A stretch of 33,087 nt of DNA, from NCBI GenBank assembly GCA_035646575.1, contig DASRPB010000018.1, positions 1-33,087 on the forward strand, given 5' to 3'. A program made the position numbers and the translations under genes. Below are positions 6,426-31,316 of the stretch, in pieces (positions within the stretch are counted from its first letter, which is position 1; each line of letters begins with the position of its first letter). This DNA is from Minisyncoccota bacterium (GTDB lineage Bacteria; Patescibacteriota; Minisyncoccia; UBA6257). Below the pieces are notes generated by a model. That model did no database searches and was not told the DNA's origin. It saw only the letters and a list, made by a program, of their open reading frames with translations.

Positions 6426-7814
6426 TTAGTCAATAAAAAAATTAATTTTCTTCAAAGACTTGGGTACTCGTTTTATCCATAACGGCCAAAGCTTTACTTC
6501 AACTTCTTTTATGCCAGGATTACTCTCAAAAATTTTATCTAATTCTCCTCTGCTTTTACCAACAATGGTTTGTTTTATTTCATCTAAAGATAATTTATGA
6601 CATACCATTTGATTTGTTTTAATCAACATTTTTAATGTACCATCATCAAAATCAGTTTTAAATTCTAAATATTCTAATTCTGGTTTTTGACAGTATTCAT
6701 AATTTTCATCTTTATCTTCATCCAACATTGCTTGTATGTACTCAATAATATCATTTTCATTAAATGCAATTATATTAACTTCTCCTTCAGCACTTACAGT
6801 AAATTTTTCTCTGGAATCGTCTATTTCAGCATCACTATCAACATTAGTAATCTTTATGCCACTTTTTGCCTCTGATAAAACTTTTAATTCTTTAGGAATT
6901 TTATTTTGCAAATCTTGCTCGATAGAACCCATAACTGTTTCAAGAATTATTTCCTCTGCATTTTTTAAATCCCCTGATGTTACCAAAGGAACAGAACCAA
7001 AACTTCCACCAGTCATTTCTTTAGTAGAAACACCATAAAAACCATTAAACTTTGATTCCCCTTCTCCAAGTAATCCTGGAATAGTAAATTTACAATCAGG
7101 TAAATTACAAGCATCAATATTATAATCTGGTCCTGCTTCGTCAGCAGTAACCTTTACATCAATAGTGGATGGTATAAGTTTTCCATTTTTAGTACTAGCA
7201 CCAGGAACAACAATACGAGAATCTAAACGGAATATTTTATGATCCGGATTTTCAAAACGTGTTGTAGCAACTAATATCTGAGGAGAAGTAGAATAATTAT
7301 TATAAATTGTGATTATACCCTTAGCTTCTCTTTCATCTTTACCTTGACCAGTACTAGAAAATTCTTGAGTTTTATCTGCTTTAAAAACAAACAGATTTCC
7401 AGGAAGAACAGCTTGACTAAAATTTGTTGCAAAAACATTTCTATCAACTAATATAGTTCCTGAAAAAGGCATTTCTATCTTCTTCGTAGTAATATTAACT
7501 TCTGCTTTAGCTAATAAAACAAATCCTAAATAATAAAAAAGAACTAAAGCAAAAAATACGCCTAAAAGAATTTTAAATTTTTTGTCTACTGTTTTCTCCT
7601 TTTTAATCCATTTTTCTCTAAAAGAAGGAACAGCTACTGTGATATTTTCCTCATTTTTAGTATCTTCTATCTTTCTTTCTATTTTTACTTTATTAATAAA
7701 ACGAATTGGAATTTCTTCCGTTTCAATTTGTTTTTGACCAGACGAATAATTATTTAATTCATGAGGCGCAAAAATATCTTTAACTTTTCTTTTCTTTTTT
7801 TGAGAATTTTCCAT
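6426..7814 (-). CDS. Hypothetical single-pass membrane-anchored protein with a large extracytoplasmic domain
   Basis: Basic N-terminus, one hydrophobic helix (FKILLGVFFALVLFYYLGFVLLA), then about 370 aa of beta-rich sequence (AKGIITIYNNYS..QILVATTRF). From memory this pattern resembles proteins labelled baseplate-J-like in CPR genomes, which I cannot verify. Confidence 0.6.
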   Translation of the reverse strand: MENSQKKKRKVKDIFAPHELNNYSSGQKQIETEEIPIRFINKVKIERKIEDTKNEENITVAVPSFREKWIKKEKTVDKKFKILLGVFFALVLFYYLGFVLLAKAEVNITTKKIEMPFSGTILVDRNVFATNFSQAVLPGNLFVFKADKTQEFSSTGQGKDEREAKGIITIYNNYSTSPQILVATTRFENPDHKIFRLDSRIVVPGASTKNGKLIPSTIDVKVTADEAGPDYNIDACNLPDCKFTIPGLLGEGESKFNGFYGVSTKEMTGGSFGSVPLVTSGDLKNAEEIILETVMGSIEQDLQNKIPKELKVLSEAKSGIKITNVDSDAEIDDSREKFTVSAEGEVNIIAFNENDIIEYIQAMLDEDKDENYEYCQKPELEYLEFKTDFDDGTLKMLIKTNQMVCHKLSLDEIKQTIVGKSRGELDKIFESNPGIKEVEVKLWPLWIKRVPKSLKKINFFID

Positions 7815-9796: not shown

Positions 9797-11071
9797 TTAA
9801 AGATACCTTTGTTCTTTTAATACTTCCTTTACTACTTGCCTATCATCAAAAGGAACCACTTTTTTTCCATAATCCATTGTTTTTTCGTTTCCCCTTCCTA
9901 AAATCACTATTAAATCCCCCTCATTAGCCTGTTTTATTGCTTCTTGAATTGCTTCTTTTCTATTTAAAAAAGATAAATATCTATCTAAAGAAATATTCTT
10001 TTTTTTCATAAAACCTAGGAAGTCATCAATGCTTTTCTGCGGAGATTCTTCTTGCGGATCATCTTCTGTGATAATAGTTAAATCAAAAAAATCAGTTGCT
10101 ATTTCTGCTAATTTTTCTCTTTCTTTTAATGGACTTTCTCCAAAATTCCCATAAACAGCAATTTTTTTCTTAGGATTTAAAATTTTAATAAAATCTATTA
10201 TCCCACAAAAGCCTGCTGGCGTATTTGCCTTATCTACAATAATAGAAAAAGGTTGTTTACCGTTTATGTATTCTAACCGTCCAGGAATATTTTTTAAACT
10301 CTCTAAACCCATTCTTAGTTTTTCAACACTGAAAGAGAATTTATGTACAGCACCAATAGCTGCTAAAGCATTAAAGATATTAAACAACCCTGGTAAGGGT
10401 AAATTAATAGAAAAAGATTCATCCTTGTAATGAATAATAACTTTATTCTCTGTTTTAGTAATTTCTTGTATATCCATCCATAAATCACAGGTTTTATCAA
10501 GACCAAAACTTAAAATTTGAGCTTGCGTATTTTTAGAAAATAAATCAAAATATTCACTTTTTTTTGGTAAAACAGCGATTGATGTTGGTTTTAAATTACG
10601 AAAAAGCTTTAATTTTGCTGAAACATAATTATTCATACTACCATGAAGAGTAATATGATGATTAAAGGAAATATTAGTTAAAGCTGCTACTGAAAAATTT
10701 AATCCATAAACCCGTTCATACATCAAACCAAATGAAGAAACTTCAATAACTACAACTTTTAAACCTTTCTTTACCATTTTTCTTAACAAAAAATTCAGAA
10801 AAAATGGGTCAGGTGTTGTTGCTGGAACATGCGCCTTAGGATATACTATTTCATTTCCAATATAATAACCAGCAGTACTAATTAAACCTGTTTTTATTCC
10901 ATTAGCTTCTAATATATTTTTTATCATAAAAGCTGTAGTAGTCTTGCCAGTAGTTCCTGTAATACCAATAATTGTAAGATTGCGCCCTGGAAAACCAAAT
11001 CTTAAGCCAGCTAAAAAAGCAATTGTTTTTCGCAATAAAGAATTCTTTTTTATTTCATTCAATAAACTCAT
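9797..11071 (-). CDS. murE: Mur ligase family protein, MurE-like (UDP-MurNAc-L-Ala-D-Glu:amino acid ligase)
   Basis: P-loop GITGTTGKTTT. TTPDP, EVSSFG, TNIS.NH....HGSMNNYVSAKLKLF and DKANTP motifs parallel MurE. TEDDPQEESP aligns with the MurE TDDNPRTEEP segment. Substrate specificity is uncertain. Confidence 0.75.
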   Translation of the reverse strand: MSLLNEIKKNSLLRKTIAFLAGLRFGFPGRNLTIIGITGTTGKTTTAFMIKNILEANGIKTGLISTAGYYIGNEIVYPKAHVPATTPDPFFLNFLLRKMVKKGLKVVVIEVSSFGLMYERVYGLNFSVAALTNISFNHHITLHGSMNNYVSAKLKLFRNLKPTSIAVLPKKSEYFDLFSKNTQAQILSFGLDKTCDLWMDIQEITKTENKVIIHYKDESFSINLPLPGLFNIFNALAAIGAVHKFSFSVEKLRMGLESLKNIPGRLEYINGKQPFSIIVDKANTPAGFCGIIDFIKILNPKKKIAVYGNFGESPLKEREKLAEIATDFFDLTIITEDDPQEESPQKSIDDFLGFMKKKNISLDRYLSFLNRKEAIQEAIKQANEGDLIVILGRGNEKTMDYGKKVVPFDDRQVVKEVLKEQRYL

Positions 11072-11078
11072 TTAACTT

Positions 11079-12323
11079 TTATTTTAAAAATTCTTTTAAT
11101 CTACCAGATTGAGGGTGCTCACTAAGTTTTTCCAATGTCTTAGCTTCTATCTGTCTAATTCTTTCTCTTGTTACTCCAAAAGCCTTTCCCACCTCTTCTA
11201 ACGTATGAGTAATCTCATCTTCCAAACCAAATCTCATTTTTATAATTTCTCTTTCTCTTTCAGCTAACTCACTCATAATTTTTTCTAATTCACTTTTTAA
11301 TAATTCTCTCTCTGTATGATCATCGGGAGTAATTGTTTTGGTGTCTGAAATAAAATCTCCTAGCTGACTACCACCATCCTCATCTCCTACTGGTTGATTT
11401 AAAGACGAAGTGCTTTGAGAAATTGTCATAAGATAAAGAATTTCATCAACTTCTTTTCCCATCTCAAAAGCTATTTCTTCTGGCAAAGGATCTCTCCCTA
11501 ATGCCTGAGATAATGATCTTCTTGCTTTCAAATATTTAGTAATTGTTTCAACCATATGAACAGGAATACGAATTGTTCTTCCTTGATCAGCTAAAGCGCG
11601 TGTAATTGCTTGTCTAATCCACCAAGTAGCATAAGTAGAAAATTTAAACCCTCTTTTGTAATCAAATTTATCAACAGCTTTAGAAAGTCCAATATTCCCC
11701 TCTTGAATTAAATCTAATAAACCTAAATTTCTACTTCTGCCGATATAACGCTTAGCAATAGAAACAACTAAACGAAGGTTAGCTTCTATCATCTTTCGTC
11801 TTGCTTGTTCATCTCCATCGTCCACCTTTTTAGCTAATTCTCTTTCTTCTTCACGAGTTAGAAGAGAAACTTTTCCTATTTCCCTTAAATATGATTGAAC
11901 AGCTCCTGATAATACTCTAGAACCTGAAACCTTTAAAGCATTCTTTAGTTCTTTCTCGGAAATTTCTTTATCTAGTATCAATAAATCTCCGCTTTCTACA
12001 ACATCAATATTAACTCCAGCCAAAGAATCATAGAGTTTTTCCAAGAGCTTAATATCTGATTCAATGCGCGGAAAATATTTTAAAATTTCATCTTGAGTAA
12101 TAAATCCTCGTGATTTACCTCTTTCAATCAATGCATCAATTCTTTCTTGTATTTTTCCTTTTTTAGACGGTTTTTTTGCTTTTTTGATATTCTTAATTTT
12201 ATTGATTTTTCTAACGTTTTTAGTTTTCTTTACTTTCTTTATTTTTTCCACCTTTCTTATTTTTTTTACAATCTTCACTTTCTTTACTTTTTTCATTTTT
12301 TTGATTTTTTTAATTTGTTTCAT
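11079..12323 (-). CDS. rpoD: RNA polymerase sigma factor, primary sigma-70 type, with a highly basic repetitive N-terminus
   Basis: Region 2 ([40 protein letters not shown]), region 3, and region 4 ([24 protein letters not shown]). Directly downstream of dnaG. Confidence 0.93.
12177..12311 (-). repeat. Degenerate 9-bp (three-codon) periodicity encoding 15 x (K/R/N/E)-K-(I/V/M) inside the rpoD N-terminus
   Basis: The protein reads [45 protein letters not shown]. The plus-strand DNA shows recurring ctttcttta/cttttttca-like 9-mers. Confidence 0.8.
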
Positions 12324-15601: not shown

Positions 15602-17152
15602 CTAGGTATCTTTACGAAAGATATTTTTAATTATTTCTTTTATTTCCCCCTTCTTAGGTTCGACTTTAGAACCATAGTGATGAGCAGAATTTGTTTGCCT
15701 TGAATTTTCTCCTCTTTGCATTCTTATTTCCTTAAAACATTCATCGCAATAAACAGGTCTAGCAGGATCAGGCTGAAAAGGCACAATAATTTTTTTCCCA
15801 CAATGAGTACATATTGCTTCCCAACCATCTTTAATTCCAACTTTTTTATCTCTGAGATCTGACTCTTTAAAACTTGGAGAAAAATCTAATAATTCCCAAT
15901 GCGCAATTTTCTTTTCAACTTCCTGCCGTAAAGAAGCATAATGTTCGCGTGAGTACTGAATTATTTCTTGTATAAATGGCCGTTCTGGTAAACTAGCAGG
16001 CGGTATATTCATCGCTGAAAAACTTTTAGATAAAACGCCGTCTATCATTAATTTTATATAAAAATTAAAATTTGGAAGATTAATTAAATCTTCCTTTGTA
16101 AATTCTGGAGCAAAATATTTTTCTAATAATTCTGCATCCTGGGGACCAAGCCTAAAAGAAACCAAAGTCCCTACATTACCAAAAATAGAATCTCTAACCT
16201 GTTCATTGAGTTGAGTTATATATTGATGAGCTAATGTTAAATCTAAACGATATTTTCTAGCTTCAGCAAAAATAGAAGCGAATGATTCTGTAGAAAAATT
16301 CTGAAACTCATCTACATATAAATAAAAATCTTTTCTTTTCTCTTCAGGAACATCTATACGACTCATTGCCGCTAATTGTATTTTTGTAACTAAAAGAGCT
16401 CCTAAAAGACTAGAGTTGTCTTCTCCAACCATACCTTTTGATAAATTAGCTAGAAGGATTTTACCTTCATCCATTATTTCCCTAATATCAATCTTTGATT
16501 CTTTCTGCCCAATGATATTTCTAATTAAAGGATTGGAGATAAATTGCCCAACTTTATTCTGAATTGGAGCAATTGCTTCTGTAGCAAAACGAGCATTATA
16601 ACGAGCAAATTCTCTTTCCCAAAAAGATCTTACAATAGGATCTGTTACCTTTTTCATTACTGCTTTACGAAAATCTTCGTCAGAAAGCAATCTATTTACA
16701 GCTAAAAGTGTTGATCCTGGATATTCTAAAAGAGCTAATAAAGCATTATTTAAAATATATTCCATTCTAGCAGACCATACATCTGGCCAAATCTTTTTAA
16801 AAACTCCCATTAAACCTGCTACAACTAAATGACGATATTCTACTGGAACTTCTTCAATAACATTAAAAGCGATTGGCCATTCAACATCGCCAGGATTAAA
16901 ATAAATGACATCTTTTATCCTATTTTCAGGGATAAAATAAAGAATTCTATTTATTAATTCTCCATGAGGATCAATAACACAAACACCTTTTCCATTATTA
17001 ATATCCTGGATGATCATATTTTCCATTACCGTTGTCTTACCTGTTCCACTTTTTCCAATAAGATACATATGCCGACGTCTATCATCAGCTTTAATCCCAA
17101 ATCGTTGGTATTCATCCCTAAAATTTGTTATTCCAATATTATTTAAATCCAT
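15602..17152 (-). CDS. P-loop ATPase resembling type IV secretion coupling proteins (VirD4/TraD/TrwB class). It lacks transmembrane helices and has a C-terminal CxxC-x17-CxxC zinc ribbon.
   Basis: Walker A GKSGTGKTT preceded by RRRHMYLIG. DPHGEL. An all-alpha insert. Walker B YLYVDEFQNF. LAHQYITQL. C-terminal CTHC-17 aa-CDEC at aa 448-472. Confidence 0.7.
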   Translation of the reverse strand: MDLNNIGITNFRDEYQRFGIKADDRRRHMYLIGKSGTGKTTVMENMIIQDINNGKGVCVIDPHGELINRILYFIPENRIKDVIYFNPGDVEWPIAFNVIEEVPVEYRHLVVAGLMGVFKKIWPDVWSARMEYILNNALLALLEYPGSTLLAVNRLLSDEDFRKAVMKKVTDPIVRSFWEREFARYNARFATEAIAPIQNKVGQFISNPLIRNIIGQKESKIDIREIMDEGKILLANLSKGMVGEDNSSLLGALLVTKIQLAAMSRIDVPEEKRKDFYLYVDEFQNFSTESFASIFAEARKYRLDLTLAHQYITQLNEQVRDSIFGNVGTLVSFRLGPQDAELLEKYFAPEFTKEDLINLPNFNFYIKLMIDGVLSKSFSAMNIPPASLPERPFIQEIIQYSREHYASLRQEVEKKIAHWELLDFSPSFKESDLRDKKVGIKDGWEAICTHCGKKIIVPFQPDPARPVYCDECFKEIRMQRGENSRQTNSAHHYGSKVEPKKGEIKEIIKNIFRKDT

Positions 17153-17156
17153 AAAT

Positions 17157-18395
17157 TTATTCTATTGGTAGCCCTATTGGCGGCTCTCCTTTTTTACTCA
17201 AAACCCTTACCAGCGAAGGAGTTTTAACTTTTAATGCTGGGAAATGATAAATTGTTGATAACTCTTCTGTATTTAGAATCATACCATTTTGTGATATTTT
17301 TCGCTTTAAACAATTTTGATAAAAATCCATTTTTTTTAAAAAGAGTCTTCTGTTCTGAAAAATTTTTGTTTTAAGAACCGTAGAAGCATCTTTATTAATC
17401 TTAAAACCATTAAGATCTTTTGAATTAAATTGTTTTAGAAAAGCCATAAATGCAGAAACATTAAATTCATTAAAAATCTTTTTTGGAGAGATATACACTA
17501 ATCTTATAACTGTATTAAATGACAATTGATTTATCTTTTTTTCAATTGATTTAACTACATCTTTTTCTCCAGGAGAAAGAACTATAGGTGCTCCATCTTT
17601 CTTTTCCTCTTTTGAAGGCCAAGATAAAGGTTCGGCTACTCCCAACAAAAGATTTTTAAAGAAAGCGCCAATCCAATCTTGCCATGTAATTTTTTTGCTT
17701 TTTTTCTTTCCCAACATACTATTAACTTTTTCTTTTCCTTCATCCATAAATTTCTTTTCGTTTTTACCAGAAAGAGGTTTAATAATAATCTCTAAAATAA
17801 GTAATTCCGACTTTTGAAGTTTATCAATGCTTTCTGCAAAACTTGATATTGGATCAATTCTTTTTTCCTCTTTTAATTCCTCAAAATAAGAATAAGTTTT
17901 AATAGGATAATAATTTTCTTTTTCTAAAGCAATTTCAGTCCCCCATAGATCAAAATCCTTGTTTGGTAAATTAGCTGGGAGACGCAAAAAATAATCATCA
18001 ATTTCTTTAATTTCTACTTCTGGATATTGAGCATAAAATTGTGATATTACTAAATTTTTATATTCTTTAGGAGCGCGAATAATAAAATATAACCCCCTAT
18101 CCATTCCAACTAGCTCTAAACAAATATAACCTTTCTCTATAACGTGCAAGCCATTAAATACTTGCTCCATGGCTTTAGGAGTTTGCAAAATCTCTTGATT
18201 AACTTTTACTTTTAAAACAATCCAATCTTTTATTCCTTCTTTCTCTTTTTTCTTCTTCTCTTCATATTTTCTATTCAAATCAATAAAAATTTTCCCAAAA
18301 ATAATAAGGGCTAATAGCCACCAAAATTCACGAAAAATTGTTCCTAAGAAAATTAAAATAATTCTTAGGTAATAAAAAAAAGTAGAAAAAGGCAT
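17157..18395 (-). CDS. Hypothetical membrane protein (two N-terminal TM helices plus a large soluble domain), partner of the downstream ATPase
   Basis: Hydrophobic segments FFYYLRIILIFLGTIF and FWWLLALIIFGKIFI, then a K/E-rich soluble region. 4-nt gap to the ATPase start. 1-nt TAATG overlap with the upstream gene. No family recognised. Confidence 0.65.
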   Translation of the reverse strand: MPFSTFFYYLRIILIFLGTIFREFWWLLALIIFGKIFIDLNRKYEEKKKKEKEGIKDWIVLKVKVNQEILQTPKAMEQVFNGLHVIEKGYICLELVGMDRGLYFIIRAPKEYKNLVISQFYAQYPEVEIKEIDDYFLRLPANLPNKDFDLWGTEIALEKENYYPIKTYSYFEELKEEKRIDPISSFAESIDKLQKSELLILEIIIKPLSGKNEKKFMDEGKEKVNSMLGKKKSKKITWQDWIGAFFKNLLLGVAEPLSWPSKEEKKDGAPIVLSPGEKDVVKSIEKKINQLSFNTVIRLVYISPKKIFNEFNVSAFMAFLKQFNSKDLNGFKINKDASTVLKTKIFQNRRLFLKKMDFYQNCLKRKISQNGMILNTEELSTIYHFPALKVKTPSLVRVLSKKGEPPIGLPIE

Positions 18396-19549
18396 TAAAC
18401 CTCTAATATTTTATAGGACCTAACTAAGCTATAATGTTTATTTGGTAATTTTTTAAAATACTTCTTATTGTGAAGATTTAAAATAATAGTATTGTCTTTA
18501 GCCATTCTACGCTTCTTAACCTCCTTAATGATTACTTCCTGTTTTAATGATTTTCCTGCCTCTTGTAAAATATCTTTAATAACATTTACTATTTTTCCTG
18601 GTTTATATCCCCATTCTCCTAACGCATAAATTCCACGTCCAATAAGGACAAAACGAGAATCACGGATTAATTCATTGTGTACAGTTTGAATACACACTTT
18701 CTTTTGCCAAGAATGAGAAACAACACATGCTGGAACAGATATTTCATTACATTTATTAAGACGTTTAGTAATATCAGAAAAATGCAAAGGTTCTTTAGAA
18801 TGTTTCATTATCAAATATGCTCTATCTCGAGCGCCAGATGGATCTATTTCAATCCAATCAAATAAACCATACTCACCAAAAGGATTCATACCAACTTTTT
18901 GAGATATTTGTAAATAAGCTATCAATTCTTCTTTGTTTATATTAGAAGAAAGATTCTTTTTGGCCCAAGATAATATCTCGTCTACTAAACAAGAAGATTG
19001 TTTTTTCTTAAAACATTTTTCTATATCTTTAATATTTTTATATATTTTATCTTTAGAAATTTTAGAAAAATGCCAAAAACCATGATATAAATTATTTTCT
19101 TCTTCAAATACAAAACCAGGATTTAATAATAATAAAAATTTAATAGCTGATAAACTCCCTTCTGATTTTTTAAATTCCTTGTTTATTTTATTAATTAATT
19201 CTTCATTTTCTTCCACTCCCCCGCTTTGCTTTAAAATCTTTTCAGCTTGTTTCATAAAAACATCAGCCATTTTTAAAACCGGCTGCTTTTTAATAGTTTT
19301 TAAAGACACCTCTATAATTTGCCTAATTCTTTCTCTAGTAATTTTATAATCCTGACCAACTGCTTCTAATGTTCTAGGATAATTGTCATCAAGACCAAAT
19401 CTTTTTCTAACAATATCTTGTGTTCGAGAGGGTAAAATTGCAATAATTTTAAGAGCCAACTGATGTGGGCTCTCTTTACTTAAATTAACGTTATTCATAT
19501 TCATATTAATATTAATTAAAGCAAGAAATAAACAAAAAGTCAATATCAA
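18395..19549 (-). CDS. DNA-binding protein with a sigma-70 region-4-like HTH and a HARE-HTH-like winged helix
   Basis: [31 protein letters not shown] matches sigma region 4. AYLIMKHSKEPLHFSDITKRL....DSRFVLIGRGIYALGEWGY matches the HARE-HTH pattern of RNAP delta subunit. The true start may be an internal Met (MNMNN, about 19498-19504), because the first 15 aa look like a spurious hydrophobic extension. Confidence 0.65.
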   Translation of the reverse strand: MILTFCLFLALININMNMNNVNLSKESPHQLALKIIAILPSRTQDIVRKRFGLDDNYPRTLEAVGQDYKITRERIRQIIEVSLKTIKKQPVLKMADVFMKQAEKILKQSGGVEENEELINKINKEFKKSEGSLSAIKFLLLLNPGFVFEEENNLYHGFWHFSKISKDKIYKNIKDIEKCFKKKQSSCLVDEILSWAKKNLSSNINKEELIAYLQISQKVGMNPFGEYGLFDWIEIDPSGARDRAYLIMKHSKEPLHFSDITKRLNKCNEISVPACVVSHSWQKKVCIQTVHNELIRDSRFVLIGRGIYALGEWGYKPGKIVNVIKDILQEAGKSLKQEVIIKEVKKRRMAKDNTIILNLHNKKYFKKLPNKHYSLVRSYKILEV

Positions 19550-19561
19550 ATAGGATCAAGC

Positions 19562-20449
19562 TTATGCTCGCTTCAGTGCCCAATCATATAATAATGGAGC
19601 AGCAAGACAAATAGAGGAATAAGTGCCTATAATTACACCGCTAATCATTGCTGTAACCAGAACTTTAATAGAAATAGGACCTAAGAAATATAGGGCTATT
19701 AATGGAAAAACTGTAGTAAGAGAGGTATTTAAGGATCGTAAGAGCGTTTGATTAATACCTAAATTAATAATTCCTCGTAAGTCTTCCTTTGTTTTCAAAT
19801 GTATATTCTCTCTAATCCTATCAAAAACCACAATTGTATCATGAACAGAATAACCAGCTACTACCAATAAAGCCACTAAAAAATCTGAATTTACCTCCCA
19901 TCCCTTTAATTTTCCCAATAAAGAAAATATTCCTACAATAAATATTGCATCGTGTATTAATACTGAAACTGCTAAAACCCCATAACGATAAGATGGGATA
20001 CGAAAAGAAGAATGACGAAAAGCATACCATAGGTATGTTAGAATCCCGAAAAAAACTAAGAAAACTGCCCAAATAGACTTTGATTTTAATTCTTGACCAA
20101 TAGAAGGACCGATTGACTCAAATTTTCTTTCTTGAATTGAAGGAATTATTTCTCGTAATCCTGAAAATAATTGAACGTGTTTTTCTTCAGAAATATTAGA
20201 AAAACGCAATATCAAACTATCTTCATTTGTAGTTTGAACATTAATTTGTCCTAACTCTTTATCTTCTAAATAATCTGAAACTTTGCTCAAGCCATTATTC
20301 TGAATATCTGGTACTGTTAATTCCCAAAGAGATCCTCCTGTAAAATCAATTCCCCAATTCAATCCAAAAATTGAAAGACATAAAAAAGAACCAACAATCA
20401 TTGCTATTGAAAACCCATAAAATATTTTTCTTTTTTGAATAAAATCCAT
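19562..20449 (-). CDS. secF: Protein translocase subunit SecF
   Basis: GIDFTGGS motif, six-TM layout, SVHDTIVVFDRIREN motif. Follows secD. Confidence 0.92.
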   Translation of the reverse strand: MDFIQKRKIFYGFSIAMIVGSFLCLSIFGLNWGIDFTGGSLWELTVPDIQNNGLSKVSDYLEDKELGQINVQTTNEDSLILRFSNISEEKHVQLFSGLREIIPSIQERKFESIGPSIGQELKSKSIWAVFLVFFGILTYLWYAFRHSSFRIPSYRYGVLAVSVLIHDAIFIVGIFSLLGKLKGWEVNSDFLVALLVVAGYSVHDTIVVFDRIRENIHLKTKEDLRGIINLGINQTLLRSLNTSLTTVFPLIALYFLGPISIKVLVTAMISGVIIGTYSSICLAAPLLYDWALKRA

Positions 20450-20451
20450 AC

Positions 20452-21774
20452 CTACTTATTTGTTGTTAAAACTTGTAAGAAAAGCCTTGTAATATATAAA
20501 GCAGTAATTAAACTTACTACTACTCCAATTGCTAATGTAACAGAAAATCCTCTTATCATGCTCGATGTGAAATAATAAAGAATCACAGCAGAAATTATTG
20601 TAGCGATATTAGAATCTCGAATAGCAGGCCATGACCTCAGAAAACCATCTTCCATTGAAATCCTTATTGGTTTATTTTTCTTAATTTCCTCTTTAGCATG
20701 TTCAAAAATCAAAATATTTGCATCTACTGCCATACCAATAGAGAGAATAAACCCAGTAATACCAGCCAAAGTAAGAGTCACCGGCAACGCTTTAAAAATA
20801 CTCATCGTTAAAATAACATAGATTATTAAAGAAATGGAAGCCAAAAACCCAGGCATCTTATAAAAAACAATCATAAAGATAAGAACTAAAATAAAACCTA
20901 GAAGAGCTGCCTTGGCTATTTTCCCGATTGATTCTTCTCCTAAAACAGCACCAACAGATTGCTGAGAAACTAAGTTAATTGGAACAGGTAAAGCACCTTG
21001 ATTCAATCTTGTTACTAATTCTTTTGCTTCTGGTAAAGTAAATTCGCTAGAAGAAATCTGCGCTTTACCTGAAAGAATTTCTTCACGAACTACAGGAATC
21101 GTAATTGGATAATTATCTAAATAAATTGCTAATGGTTGTCCAACATTCTTTTTTGTTAAAACAGCAAAAATCTTTCCGCCTTCATCATTAAATTGAATAT
21201 TAATTATAGGTAGAGAATTCTGATCAAATCCTAATTCTGCTCTTTCTAAATATTGTCCTGTTAAAGAAGTCTGTTTAAAATATGGATCAGTCTGCATAAT
21301 GCTTAAATCAGGCTCTTCCTTATTGGACTCTTCCTCTTGTAATTCTAATATTGCTTTGGCTTCTTCTTCAGTACGAGCCTCTTTAAATTCCAAATATGGA
21401 GTTTCTCCAATCATTTTAATCGCTTCTTGAATATCTTTAATTCCAGCTAACTCTACTATTAAACGCCATTTTTCTCCGCTTTTATTGATTTGTACACGTG
21501 GCTCTCTTACTCCTGAATAGTTTATACGTCTTTCTATTACATCTCTTAAACCATCCATTGCTGAAGCATGATCAGAAACTTCAATATTATTTAAATCAGC
21601 TTCATAAAGTAAAAGTGTTCCACCAGAAACATCAAGCCCAAAACTAAAAGGCCTCTCAAAAAAACTTGGAAGTATAATCCCCTTTTCTCGTAATCCATCG
21701 GGATAAATAAAAATCCCCAATAAAATGGTGATAATAAAAATCCCAATAATAATTAATAATTTTTTATGATTCAT
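20452..21774 (-). CDS. secD: Protein translocase subunit SecD
   Basis: LGLDVSGGT-like motif (FGLDVSGGTLLLYE), periplasmic domain, and C-terminal six-TM region with GMAVDANILIFE. Confidence 0.92.
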   Translation of the reverse strand: MNHKKLLIIIGIFIITILLGIFIYPDGLREKGIILPSFFERPFSFGLDVSGGTLLLYEADLNNIEVSDHASAMDGLRDVIERRINYSGVREPRVQINKSGEKWRLIVELAGIKDIQEAIKMIGETPYLEFKEARTEEEAKAILELQEEESNKEEPDLSIMQTDPYFKQTSLTGQYLERAELGFDQNSLPIINIQFNDEGGKIFAVLTKKNVGQPLAIYLDNYPITIPVVREEILSGKAQISSSEFTLPEAKELVTRLNQGALPVPINLVSQQSVGAVLGEESIGKIAKAALLGFILVLIFMIVFYKMPGFLASISLIIYVILTMSIFKALPVTLTLAGITGFILSIGMAVDANILIFEHAKEEIKKNKPIRISMEDGFLRSWPAIRDSNIATIISAVILYYFTSSMIRGFSVTLAIGVVVSLITALYITRLFLQVLTTNK

Positions 21775-22087: not shown

Positions 22088-22435
22088 TTATTTATATTGC
22101 AACGACCTTCTTTGTGTTGTTATTTTATTAATTATTATACCACAATCTTTTTTCAAGCCATAGCAAATAAAAAAAAACAAACTCAAAAGCTTGGGTTTAT
22201 ACACTATTTTCCCGGGAAGACACTTCCCTTTTCTTCTATAACTAAATTCGACAAATTGTTTAATACTATCTTCGTTTAATCGCTTTTTTATTTCAGGTGA
22301 TAAATTTATATCCCGAATATAATCATAAACTGTAGTTTTTGGAAGATTAACAATTTCCATAATATCTCCTAAACTAAATCCACTTCTTCTCAAGATTCTG
22401 CATCTTCGTATTAACAGTGGGTCTGCTTTACGCAT
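22088..22435 (-). CDS. Small HTH-domain protein (resolvase/homeodomain-type HTH), possibly a truncated or decaying gene
   Basis: I trimmed the tracked ORF 22088-22507 to Met25 (ATG 22433-22435) because its first 24 codons lie over the tRNA. RRCRILRRSGFSLGDIMEIVNLPKTTVYDYIRD is a typical three-helix HTH. The C-terminal third is odd, low-quality sequence. Confidence 0.4.
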   Translation of the reverse strand: MRKADPLLIRRCRILRRSGFSLGDIMEIVNLPKTTVYDYIRDINLSPEIKKRLNEDSIKQFVEFSYRRKGKCLPGKIVYKPKLLSLFFFICYGLKKDCGIIINKITTQRRSLQYK

Positions 22436-22446
22436 ATTTATAAAAT

Positions 22447-22522
22447 TGGTGCCCTCACCAGGACTCGAACCTGGAACCTTATCCTTAAAAGGGATCTGCT
22501 CTACCAATTGAGCTATGAGGGC
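22447..22522 (-). tRNA. tRNA-Lys (anticodon UUU), 76 nt with genomically encoded CCA
   Basis: The reverse complement folds by hand as a cloverleaf: GCCCTCA TA GCTC AATTGGTA GAGC A GATCC CTTTTAA GGATA AGGTT CCAGG TTCGAGT CCTGG TGAGGGC ACCA. Confidence 0.92.
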
Positions 22523-23048: not shown

Positions 23049-23609
23049 ATGATTTCTACAACTGATTTTGAAAAAGGAATGGTTATTAAAGTTAATGGTG
23101 AGCCTTGGCAAATCACTAATTTTGAATTTTATAAGCCAGGAAAAGGTGGGGCGGTAATGAGAACTGACTTAAAAAACTTCCAAACAGGAAAAGTCGTACA
23201 AAAAACATTTCGCTCTGGAGATAAATTTGAAGAAATAGAAACAGAGTATCAACCTGCTATCTATATATATAGCGATAAAAAATCAGCTTTTTTTCAATTA
23301 GAAGGCAGCAATGAACGAATTAGTTTTCCTCTTGAAAAAGTAGAAAAATTTATTCAATTTTTAAAAGAGAAAAGCGAAGTTTCAATTGTCTTTCTTGATG
23401 AAAAACCAATTAATATCAATATTCCAATAAAAGTAGAGCTATTAGTTGTTGAAGCCCCAGCAGCAATTAAAGGAAATACTGTTTCAGGAGGTATAAAAAC
23501 TGTAACTTTAGAAACAGGATTAAAAATTAATACACCACTCTTTATAAAGGAAGGTGATATATTAATTATTAATACTGAAACAGCAAGCTATGTATCAAGG
23601 GCAAAGTAA
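23049..23609 (+). CDS. efp: Elongation factor P
   Basis: MISTTDFEKGMVIKVNGEPWQI...YKPGKGGAVMRT with the conserved loop lysine (PGKG). Three-domain length. Confidence 0.93.
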   Translation: MISTTDFEKGMVIKVNGEPWQITNFEFYKPGKGGAVMRTDLKNFQTGKVVQKTFRSGDKFEEIETEYQPAIYIYSDKKSAFFQLEGSNERISFPLEKVEKFIQFLKEKSEVSIVFLDEKPININIPIKVELLVVEAPAAIKGNTVSGGIKTVTLETGLKINTPLFIKEGDILIINTETASYVSRAK

Positions 23610-30467: not shown

Positions 30468-31316
30468 TCACTTTTCTAACAATAATATCTCTGCCTCTCT
30501 CTTAATGGCAGAGATCTTTTTTTCAGGAATATTTATCTTTTTTGAAAATTTTGATACATCTATCTTTAATACATCTTGAACCAACATTAATTTTTTCTGA
30601 CCAAATATTTCTAATAAATCATTGGTTAAAGACGGAAGAATAGTAATCGGATAGAATTTTTCTGATTCAATAATATACTCCAATCCCGTTAACTCTGGAT
30701 ATTTCCATCCTAATAAATCTATCCCAACTCCCTCAGCATATTTAATTATTTCACTTGTAAATTTAGTATTTGTTACAATAATTGGTCGAATTTTTAGTTT
30801 TTTTGATTTAATCTTTTTGCAAGCATCTCCAGATATTAAATCCAAACAACGTGAATTATGAATTAAACCAACTTTTAAATCAACTCTCCCTCCTGGCAAA
30901 CCATGGTATTTACATTCTCCAATTAAACAGTATTCCTTCTCTTTTGCTACAAAATCAATTTCATGATCAACATATTGTCCTTTAATATGTTGATTAAGTT
31001 TAATAGAAAAACCAAGTTGTCTTAAAATCCCTCCCACATATTTTTCAAATGGAAAGCCGCTTGGACCTAAGCGCCTAATCGCCTCCTTTAATCTAAAACG
31101 AATTCTGCCACGAGGATATTTCTTTGATAAAATTTGTTCAACCCGTTGAAAAATTTCTTTTGTGGTAATTCCTGGATATGCCTCCCTCTCAATAACAGTA
31201 GCAATTTGTCTTGCTAATTCTTTTGAAGCGCCAACTCGTTCAGCGCTAATACAAATCTTTTTCCATGAAAATGGTTCTTTTTGACCTGAGTTATTGATAA
31301 CATATAGTTTCTTCAT
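30468..31316 (-). CDS. ATP-cone domain protein fused to a restriction-endonuclease-fold (Mrr-like, D..ExK) domain
   Basis: The N-terminus VINNSGQKEPFSWKKI..S....G.....A..IA..IE........TTKEIFQ.VEQIL fits an ATP-cone. GFPFEKYVGGILRQLGF...VDHEIDFVAKEKEYCLIGECKYH fits a PD-(D/E)xK Mrr-type core. The C-terminal helical region is possibly HhH-like. Confidence 0.65.
   Translation of the reverse strand: MKKLYVINNSGQKEPFSWKKICISAERVGASKELARQIATVIEREAYPGITTKEIFQRVEQILSKKYPRGRIRFRLKEAIRRLGPSGFPFEKYVGGILRQLGFSIKLNQHIKGQYVDHEIDFVAKEKEYCLIGECKYHGLPGGRVDLKVGLIHNSRCLDLISGDACKKIKSKKLKIRPIIVTNTKFTSEIIKYAEGVGIDLLGWKYPELTGLEYIIESEKFYPITILPSLTNDLLEIFGQKKLMLVQDVLKIDVSKFSKKINIPEKKISAIKREAEILLLEK

Follow-up and report, generated by a model that had tools for sequence, protein, structure and literature searches.

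A 33,087-nt contig stretch from a Minisyncoccota bacterium (the window) carries on its minus strand three consecutive open reading frames (ORFs) at positions 15602-19549, termed here g1 (18395..19549), g2 (17157..18395) and g3 (15602..17152), at the coordinates given by an initial annotation of the window. We found that the trio is a conserved, chromosomal and vertically inherited unit that is fixed as a core operon behind secDF. The second and third genes, which encode a DUF8128 membrane protein of 412 aa and a TrwB/VirD4-type ATPase of 516 aa without a transmembrane (TM) segment, represent one type IV coupling protein (T4CP) in two genes, because single-chain homologues carry both halves. 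We put at about 0.45 the probability of a fuller reading, in which a T4CP from a long monoderm/phage lineage was split into g2 and g3, moved out of its conjugation module and placed in a core operon with g1, and in which the three products work as proposed below. Coordinates of features within the trio refer to the minus strand throughout.

The ATPase was closest to T4CPs both by profile and by fold, in line with the coupling-protein layout proposed in the initial annotation, and all four motifs reported there (GKSGTGKTT, DPHGEL, DEFQNF and LAHQYITQL) are present. Across 32 g3 homologues aligned with g3 (alignment A2), the Walker motifs are invariant, with G33, G36, G38 and K39 unchanged in Walker A (GKSGTGKTT, residues 33-41; 17030..17056) and D281, E282, F283 and Q284 unchanged in Walker B (YVDEFQNF, residues 279-286; 16295..16318). 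Four Pfam models scored above their gathering cut-offs, namely TrwB_AAD_bind (2e-12, 47.0 bits; cut-off 20.5), T4SS-DNA_transf (27.5 bits; cut-off 20.1), TraG-D_C (25.0 bits; cut-off 22) and DUF87, and FtsK_SpoIIIE was absent from the 25 best families listed for g3, out of 30 at E<=1. T4CP families thus scored best, and not a non-translocase family. When the g3 profile was compared by hhalign with proteins of plasmid R388 (record NC_028464), it aligned with TrwB at 94.6% (E 6.7e-8), whereas with TrwK/VirB4 the P-loop alone aligned. The AlphaFold2 (AF2) model of g3 (pLDDT 84) opens with a beta-hairpin that starts the soluble domain and superposed best on TrwB-deltaN70 (Foldseek E 2e-14, target-normalized TM-score (TMt) 0.63-0.66, ~410 columns); the matches that followed were HerA, Cag-beta, DotL and DndH-C, and no VirB4 was found among the top 50.

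Like the canonical T4CPs (TrwB of R388, VirD4, TraD and TraG), g3 has a nucleotide-binding domain with an inserted all-alpha domain (residues 104-228; 16469..16843), helical in the AF2 model and superposing on TrwB, and it shares with them the 'rH..i.G.tGtGKt' P-loop region and the 'HQ..tQL' block. Unlike them, it lacks an N-terminal two-helix TM domain of its own (the highest 19-residue Kyte-Doolittle mean in g3 is 1.31), the membrane segment residing instead on g2 together with a large cytoplasmic domain, and it is not linked to relaxase or mating-pair-formation genes. The zinc ribbon noted earlier as an addition was confirmed as a C-terminal CxxC-x17-CxxC treble clef (residues 444-476; 15725..15823; PF23477, zf_Tbcl_2, 5e-13; TIGR04272, 4.6e-13), in which C448, C451, C469 and C472 are invariant in A2. 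Scores against the curated conjugative T4CP models of NCBIfam fell far under the cut-offs, the best being conju_CD1115 (50 bits, cut-off 250) and SXT_TraD (46 bits, cut-off 366). The all-alpha domain of T4CPs is usually variable and substrate-specific; in the g3 family 40 of its 125 positions are invariant, a conservation equal to that of the ATPase core. T4CPs recruit substrates to a T4SS channel and have DNA-stimulated ATPase activity, properties that g3 may share.

Relatives of g3 also occur outside the phylum. The closest one seen outside Patescibacteria is a 395-aa ATPase-only protein on a Sulfitobacter mediterraneus plasmid (NZ_CP081110; locus L087, 6983-8170), 41% identical to g3 (E 2e-98), which lies alone among transposases and a recombinase, has neither a zinc ribbon nor an annotated g2-like partner, and may reflect horizontal transfer. 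More distant g3-like ATPases (~30% identity) were found in 686 plasmid records, of which 508 are typed as non-mobilizable, mainly in Bacillus (278), Pseudomonas (110), Streptomyces (106) and haloarchaea; these counts point to a wider family of g3-type T4CPs outside classical conjugative plasmids. At one Patescibacteria locus (L049, 9876-11559), g3 is present as two overlapping ORFs (9876-10736 and 10651-11559), which may stem from a frameshift or misassembly or mark a pseudogene.

The product of g2 comprises an N-terminal membrane helix, a cytoplasmic alpha/beta domain and a conserved disordered tail. The initial annotation had described two N-terminal hydrophobic helices; hydropathy and family comparison (alignment A1) place a hydrophobic region at residues 3-41 (18273..18389), in which one TM helix, at about residues 24-41, is conserved across the family, bears the invariant W25 and W26 and is followed by a K/E-rich stretch, whereas the preceding segment is variable and either hydrophobic or amphipathic. 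The soluble domain had been called unassignable, and searches of Pfam, NCBIfam, PADLOC and PHROGs with g2 indeed gave no match; its homologues, however, carry the precomputed label PF26449 (DUF8128), the sole source of that assignment, and its model has structural matches. When clustered at 50% identity, the DUF8128 family recovered by an exhaustive profile search comprised 3363 clusters; representatives of the top 150 are 320-549 aa long. The AF2 model of g2 (pLDDT 81) shows a long N-terminal helix, the alpha/beta domain and the tail (residues 386-412; 17160..17240), which is predicted to be disordered (pLDDT <50 at residues 389-410), carries a KKGEPPxGLP motif and is preceded by EELATIYHFP. 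Six positions in and next to the tail (H384, P386, K402, P406, L409 and P410) are invariant in A1.

Among viral models (BFVD), the g2 model matched phage G gp156 best (Foldseek, 1e-17), then two Bacillus phage proteins and the VirB4-like gp155 of phage G. Among PDB structures, R388 TrwK/VirB4 chains took ranks 1-9, with three more among ranks 10-18 (best E 1.4e-5), with a probability of 1.0 but a query-normalized TM-score (TMq) of 0.33-0.38, the aligned TrwK residues not being reported. At the sequence level, the g2 profile found nothing among PDB sequences at E<=10 and gave no meaningful alignment with R388 TrwK. VirB4 proteins also differ in that they carry a VirB4-type ATPase, whereas the ATPase paired with g2 is of the VirD4 type. 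These comparisons suggest that g2 is the conserved N-domain of a monoderm/phage coupling-protein lineage, with a predicted VirB4-like fold. Free-standing proteins resembling the VirB4 N-domain (TrsD) are common in Patescibacteria (PMC12102498); TrsD genes adjoin virB4, whereas g2 adjoins g3 and secDF.

The relation of g2 to g3 is revealed by long T4CPs that are phage- or plasmid-borne single chains of 812-906 aa (phage G gp156, SPO1 gp27.4, 0305phi8-36 orf201 and Embleya WP_331738717; PHROG 5156). Their ATPase half is clearly homologous to g3, and the homology of their N-half to g2 is strong in gp156 but weak in the SPO1 and Embleya proteins. Positions 408-805 of the 824-position phrog_5156 profile matched g3 with an E of 8e-64. 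For gp156 (825 aa), the C-half is 29% identical to g3 (E 5e-42) and the N-half aligned with the g2 profile over 289 columns (hhalign 97.7%, E 1.4e-12); SPO1 gp27.4 is a weaker member of the group, its N-half reaching 65%. The 812-aa Embleya plasmid protein, annotated as a conjugative DNA transfer protein of a type IV secretion system (T4SS), shares 30.5% identity with g3 over its C-half (E 2e-61), and its N-half is weakly collinear with g2 through an ELAxxxHxP...PPxxxP motif (41%, E 2.8e-4). It has a single N-terminal TM helix, as does g2, followed by RRRR, and probably combines TM helix, N-domain and ATPase in one polypeptide in the g2+g3 order, weak as the match of the N-half is.

Versions in which N-domain and ATPase are fused thus exist, in phage G and in the Embleya T4SS cluster, whereas no fused g2-g3 chain was found among the top 120 homologues of g2 and of g3 or among the 150 DUF8128 representatives. 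The split point falls in a linker: g2 ends in ...KKGEPPxGLP, its tail aligning with the linker into the ATPase of the fused gp156 and Embleya homologues, and g3 opens with the beta-hairpin and FGIKxDDRRRHxYxIGKxGxGKT, a segment that aligns with the start of the TrwB soluble domain. The coupling protein is therefore split, as the initial annotation had supposed, and the TM helix is indeed on g2; its casting as merely an anchor was wrong, since its ~350-aa cytoplasmic domain corresponds to the N-domain of the long T4CPs and g2 is half of the ancestral protein.

The setting of the long T4CPs differs from that of the trio. The Embleya gene lies in a monoderm-type T4SS module (PrgI - VirB4-like - T4CP - Replic_Relax - NlpC/P60; L088), phage G has the same order of VirB4-like gp155 and long T4CP gp156, and in SPO1 gp27.4 is followed by a Replic_Relax protein. 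Pathria et al. (PMC3357382) assigned the phage proteins, which have a large N-terminal domain without TM helices, the role of coupling ATPase in a "DNA translocation operon", beside a relaxase that bears a helix-turn-helix (HTH). An HTH-bearing DNA-binding partner gene adjoins the long T4CPs and the g2-g3 pair alike; in the former it is a Replic_Relax/MobC-type relaxase with a VirB4-like ATPase alongside, whereas the trio has the sigma region 4/HARE-HTH partner described below, with neither relaxase nor VirB4 near. The long T4CPs also lack the zinc ribbon of g3, and the trio stands in a core chromosomal operon. In phage G, gp155 and gp156 (L004, 1241-5383) are tandem ATPases, each with a g2-like N-domain, gp155 being VirB4-like (TraG P-loop/AAA_10) and gp156 T4CP-like; an N-terminal TM helix is replaced in gp156 by an internal hydrophobic one (residues 182-207).

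The protein encoded by g1 consists of a free-standing region 4 of a primary sigma factor, a helical linker, a HARE-HTH winged helix and a second winged-helix-like block; the first two of these DNA-binding modules had been recognized in the initial annotation, and both Pfam models match. The sigma-70 region 4 (residues 36-87 of the long ORF; 19289..19444; Sigma70_r4, 1e-9) is complete, lies within the first ~70 residues of g1, matched RpoD/SigA region 4 structures in a profile search of the PDB (E 2e-19) and is 44% identical to region 4 of the RpoD encoded in the window; its recognition helix ITRERIRQI agrees with primary sigma factors, TRERIRQI being identical in the window's RpoD. The HARE-HTH domain (residues 244-313; 18611..18820; 5.6e-6, 27.1 bits, gathering cut-off 25.9) contains an invariant H291/N292/L294/G304-R305-G306 block in the g1 family alignment (A3). 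The second module (residues 316-375; 18425..18604) is a conserved block of A3 whose pattern resembles the first winged helix, with no model match.

Searches with Pfam, NCBIfam and a profile against the PDB recovered region 4 alone and no sigma region 2. Against the RNA polymerase (RNAP) delta model TIGR04567, g1 scored 35.1 bits, under the cut-off of 42, and its C-terminus is a second, basic winged helix with no acidic tail such as RNAP delta has. Lacking both sigma region 2 and an acidic delta tail, g1 cannot be classed as a sigma factor or as the delta subunit of RNAP; its region 4 profile and HARE-HTH matches suggest a binder of nucleic acid or of RNAP. Derivation of g1 from a diverged Replic_Relax relaxase was also considered and dropped, the g1 profile having no similarity to the SPO1 relaxase gp27.3. 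The longest ORF (384 aa) begins at TTG 19549, which adds a hydrophobic 15-17-residue N-terminus (window 19498-19549) that is absent in homologues; the lengths of the homologues (365-372 aa), A3 and the sequence itself indicate that the true start is probably ATG 19504 or 19498, giving ~367-369 aa.

The case for the trio as a unit comes from comparative synteny. We scanned one genome per GTDB species and analysed the best 80 of >569 DUF8128 loci, each with +/-8 kb of neighbourhood. All 80 are from Patescibacteria (Azam-, Harrison-, Lipton-, Wolfe-, Terry-, Portnoy-, Sung-, Yanofsky-, Giovannoni-, Magasanik- and Moranbacteria and other metagenome-assembled genomes), and the trio is present in nearly all of them, well beyond the genome in which it was noticed. 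The g1 gene lies directly upstream of g2 in 77 of the 80 loci (median gap 36 nt) and g3 directly downstream in 75 (53-81% identity, median gap 17 nt), and a collinear, same-strand secD-secF-g1-g2-g3 arrangement is found in 52-53 (median secF-g1 gap 72 nt), whereas the genes 3' of g3 vary. Median identity to the window in the same loci is 59% for g3, 48% for SecD, 41% for SecF, 36% for g2 and 34% for g1; g3 is thus more conserved than SecD and SecF of the same genomes, which indicates constraint of housekeeping grade.

The loci lie always among housekeeping genes and not within a conjugative or integrative element, and relaxase, VirB4 and integrase were absent from the recurrent neighbours in the surveyed regions. 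The proposal that the trio differs from a conjugation module therefore stands as far as gene neighbourhood goes; absence from the window cannot show independence from a T4SS, because ~80% of the genomes in this phylum have a VirB4-type T4SS at another site (PMC12102498). A mobile origin of the Patescibacteria form was rejected, as DUF8128 was found neither in IMG/VR by profile scan nor, with g2 as a tblastn query, in the plasmid collection.

Recurrent extra neighbours were EF-P (30 loci, immediately 3' of g3 in most), MnmA (20), ComEC (15) and, further upstream, SecA (9). The ComEC gene begins within 0.8-3.1 kb past g3 and shares its strand in all but one of the 15 loci (L012, L015, L018, L025, L028, L034, L039, L045, L049, L050, L055, L059, L075, L082 and L083), in two arrangements with either EF-P/MnmA or TrmD in between, and this proximity possibly reflects a link to DNA uptake. 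In 10 loci a 295-aa MBL-like ORF follows. Some loci depart from the common order. A sub-lineage without adjacent g3 has XerC-like - g1 - g2 - NusA (L001, 5874-9269; L030, 49-3799), where a Pfam match (L001) and N-terminal similarity (L030) confirm the recombinase; L021 (758-3109) has g1 - g2 - NusA, again with no adjacent g3; and L064 and L066 have S6 - SSB - g2 - g3 with no adjacent g1.

Within the window, the junctions that had suggested tight coupling are real: g1 and g2 overlap in a TAATG stop/start at 18395, and the 4-nt gap between g2 and g3 reads TAA-ATTT-ATG. Such tightness is not peculiar to the trio, since ddl begins 7 nt past g3 and the whole strand is densely packed, which is why spacing carries little of the argument for a unit. 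Upstream on the same strand lie the conserved neighbours secD (20452-21774) and secF (19562-20449; together 19562..21774), both identified by Pfam. The housekeeping surroundings described initially agree with Pfam annotation of the window, whose other genes encode S9, S4, RpoA, AlaRS, a Mur ligase, RpoD, DnaG, Ddl, MgtC, EF-P, GlmS, enolase and PPDK; the label dgkA for a 121-aa ORF comes from the initial annotation only. Pfam analysis of the window proteins revealed no relaxase, VirB protein or integrase, GC is uniform (~29%), and flanking repeats are lacking beyond short AT-rich matches at chance level. Scans for repeats, tRNAs and Rfam families found no element borders, yielding one tRNA-Lys upstream of secD and short repeats at chance level. 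A promoter/terminator scan of 14-23 kb was uninformative: promoter-like sites were rarer than in shuffled sequence, and nothing 3' of g3 made a convincing terminator.

These data allow us to propose how the trio might have arisen and how it might work. In Patescibacteria, a long T4CP gene would have been split at the linker, moved from its conjugation module, given a zinc ribbon and fixed behind secDF with g1. The g2 protein would sit in the cytoplasmic membrane by its single TM helix, with the basic stretch inside, and its N-domain and conserved C-terminal tail would hold a g3 hexamer, which would hydrolyse ATP and move or deliver a substrate at the membrane. In place of a relaxase or accessory DNA-binding protein, g1 would select or load nucleic acid or nucleoprotein, possibly RNAP-bound DNA, onto the all-alpha domain of g3. 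The trio may thus form a physical complex whose function is the handling of DNA or nucleoprotein at the membrane. The most likely conduit would be the phylum's own VirB4-type (monoderm-type) T4SS encoded elsewhere, favoured because of the ancestry of g2 and g3, with ComEC as a second candidate.

Several points weigh against this proposal. The binding of g2 to g3, and of g1 to either, is something we infer. The likeness of g2 to VirB4 is purely structural (TMq 0.36), with no signal in sequence profiles. No nuclease or relaxase domain is detectable in g1, so that "relaxase substitute" is an analogy, and its domain types are better known from RNAP subunits (sigma region 4 and delta), which means that it could be a plain transcription factor sharing the operon. 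T4CPs move proteins too, and DNA is hence not the sole candidate substrate. In Southlakia epibionticum (S. epibionticum), the T4CP homologue is dispensable whereas T4SS genes are essential (PMC12102498); together with the excess of T4CP homologues over VirB4 in the phylum (2918 versus 2417), this fits poorly with the T4SS as an obligatory conduit. The 80 loci, finally, come from Parcubacteria/Paceibacteria-type and ABY1-type lineages only.

The same dispensability of the T4CP homologue, shared by comEC (PMC12102498, PMC12857230), and the wider spread of T4CP homologues than of VirB4 would suit an exapted motor that is free of any T4SS, a role raised for these homologues by the authors of PMC12102498 themselves. 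Such a split T4CP would act on DNA at the membrane, in ComEC uptake for nucleotide scavenging or competence, or in FtsK-like chromosome handling, that is, segregation or Xer-linked dimer resolution with the g1 winged helices serving as an FtsK gamma domain. The trio resembles FtsK/SpoIIIE in its overall plan, in which hexameric motors of one superfamily are combined with a membrane anchor and with winged helices for DNA recognition, on one polypeptide in FtsK/SpoIIIE but over three genes in the trio, whose winged helices are of the HARE-HTH type and lie on g1. The setting of the 80 loci, never near T4SS genes, the ComEC genes 3' of g3 and the XerC/D-type recombinase that immediately precedes g1 in at least two loci of the g3-less sub-lineage (L001 and L030) are consistent with this view. 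Yet most loci lack ComEC or Xer linkage, which could be a synteny peculiar to certain lineages, FtsK is present in at least Saccharibacteria (PMC10768705), the FtsK_SpoIIIE family is missing from the Pfam families listed above for g3, and the characterized relatives of the g3 ATPase all work with a T4SS, which leaves the exapted motor a doubtful, if serious, alternative to a coupling protein serving the phylum's T4SS.

It is rather unlikely, in our judgement, that g1 stands outside the machine altogether, as an RNAP-associated or promoter-binding factor (a sigma region 4/delta-like hybrid) that shares the operon through conserved gene order. Both of its recognizable domains derive from RNAP subunits, g2-g3 occurs without adjacent g1 and g1-g2 without adjacent g3 in the two and three loci described above, gene spacing is tight throughout the window, and secDF, whose function has no evident connection, accompanies the pair nearly as frequently; against this, g1-g2 adjacency is the most conserved link of all (77/80), persists where the flanking genes change on both sides and is accompanied by the TAATG overlap in the window. 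Still less probable is a protein substrate, recruited or unfolded at the membrane as by effector-translocating T4CPs and possibly tied to Sec. That idea draws on the secD-secF genes upstream in about two thirds of loci, with secA further upstream in nine, on the structural matches of g3 to DotL and Cag-beta, which are T4CPs of effector systems, and on the rarity of relaxases in Patescibacteria, whose T4SS is thought to be non-conjugative (PMC12102498), but it sits badly with a g1 made wholly of nucleic-acid-binding modules, with the zinc ribbon on g3 and with nearest relatives that adjoin relaxases, and no T4CP is known to work with Sec. A mobile-element remnant or an anti-phage defence module consisting of a HerA/FtsK-type ATPase and a partner is effectively excluded: weak PADLOC matches of g3 to mad8 (3e-14) and HerA models and its structural matches to DndH-C and defence HerA proteins are set against very strong purifying selection, a place beside secDF that is fixed across species, uniform GC, the absence of an integrase, repeats or a tRNA-flanked island from the window, and the absence of DUF8128 from IMG/VR and plasmids.

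Parts of this system have been seen before. VirD4-type T4CP homologues were reported in 2918 of 3035 Patescibacteria genomes, 148 of them near virB4, with VirB4 in 2417 and relaxases in 103 of those genomes (Quinonero-Coronel et al., PMC12102498); the neighbours of the T4CP homologues were not analysed there. T4CPs without a TM domain that act with a separate membrane partner are likewise a recognized class, exemplified by TraJ/TraI of pIP501 (PMC7431656), a paper that cites Llosa and Alkorta for this class (their class iii). The trio shares with TraJ/TraI the principle of a soluble coupling ATPase and a neighbouring membrane protein; the pIP501-type proteins belong to plasmid conjugation, whereas g2 is no unrelated anchor and carries the ~350-aa domain of the ancestral protein. 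The initial claim that the system is undescribed therefore holds for the three-gene unit and its linkage to secDF, to which novelty is limited, and not for the ATPase, published as a near-universal orphan T4CP, or for the TM-less principle. In our literature search we found no description of the g1-g2-g3 unit, the assignment of DUF8128, the fission, the sigma region 4/HARE-HTH partner or the secDF linkage, no paper that mentions DUF8128 and none that joins HARE-HTH with the Candidate Phyla Radiation. Bacterial proteins that pair a HARE-HTH with sigma-like HTH domains may have been noted earlier, in the HARE-HTH work of Aravind and Iyer (2012).

Several further features of the window lie apart from the trio. 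The tRNA-Lys(UUU) gene (22447-22522, minus strand) lies ~700 nt upstream of secD and is overlapped by a 139-aa TTG ORF (22088-22507, minus strand) that has no Pfam match and is probably spurious. EF-P (23049-23609) is the sole plus-strand gene of the window with Pfam confirmation, and GC skew is negative throughout, which fits a single replichore. Between the ribosomal-protein/rpoA block and alaS, a 462-aa ORF (6426-7814, minus strand) has no Pfam match at 1e-5; its homologues adjoin alaS in L046 and L047. Also on the minus strand are a 282-aa protein with an AF1548-like C-terminal domain (30468-31316) and a 523-aa membrane-fusion protein of the HlyD type (94-1665).

Much of bacterial diversity belongs to the Patescibacteria, which have tiny genomes and depend on host cells. 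Earlier surveys, in counting the ATPase as an "orphan T4CP", missed its DUF8128 membrane partner, its constant neighbour with a sigma domain and winged helices, and its origin by fission, and DUF8128 now gains a structural and evolutionary assignment. A bolder version of the argument, which we consider unlikely, is that the T4CP has been domesticated throughout the phylum as an essential-like, non-conjugative housekeeping motor, with g1 guiding the split protein to promoter-like DNA or RNAP and with ComEC or Sec as its partner; its tasks could include taking up DNA as a source of nucleotides or holding transcribed DNA at the membrane, and, if true, this would give the VirD4 family a cellular role, and a sigma domain a use, that are both new. 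The three-gene unit would be amenable to study in the genetically tractable Saccharibacteria, provided that orthologues exist there, and it bears on the traffic of DNA or protein between Patescibacteria epibionts and their hosts.

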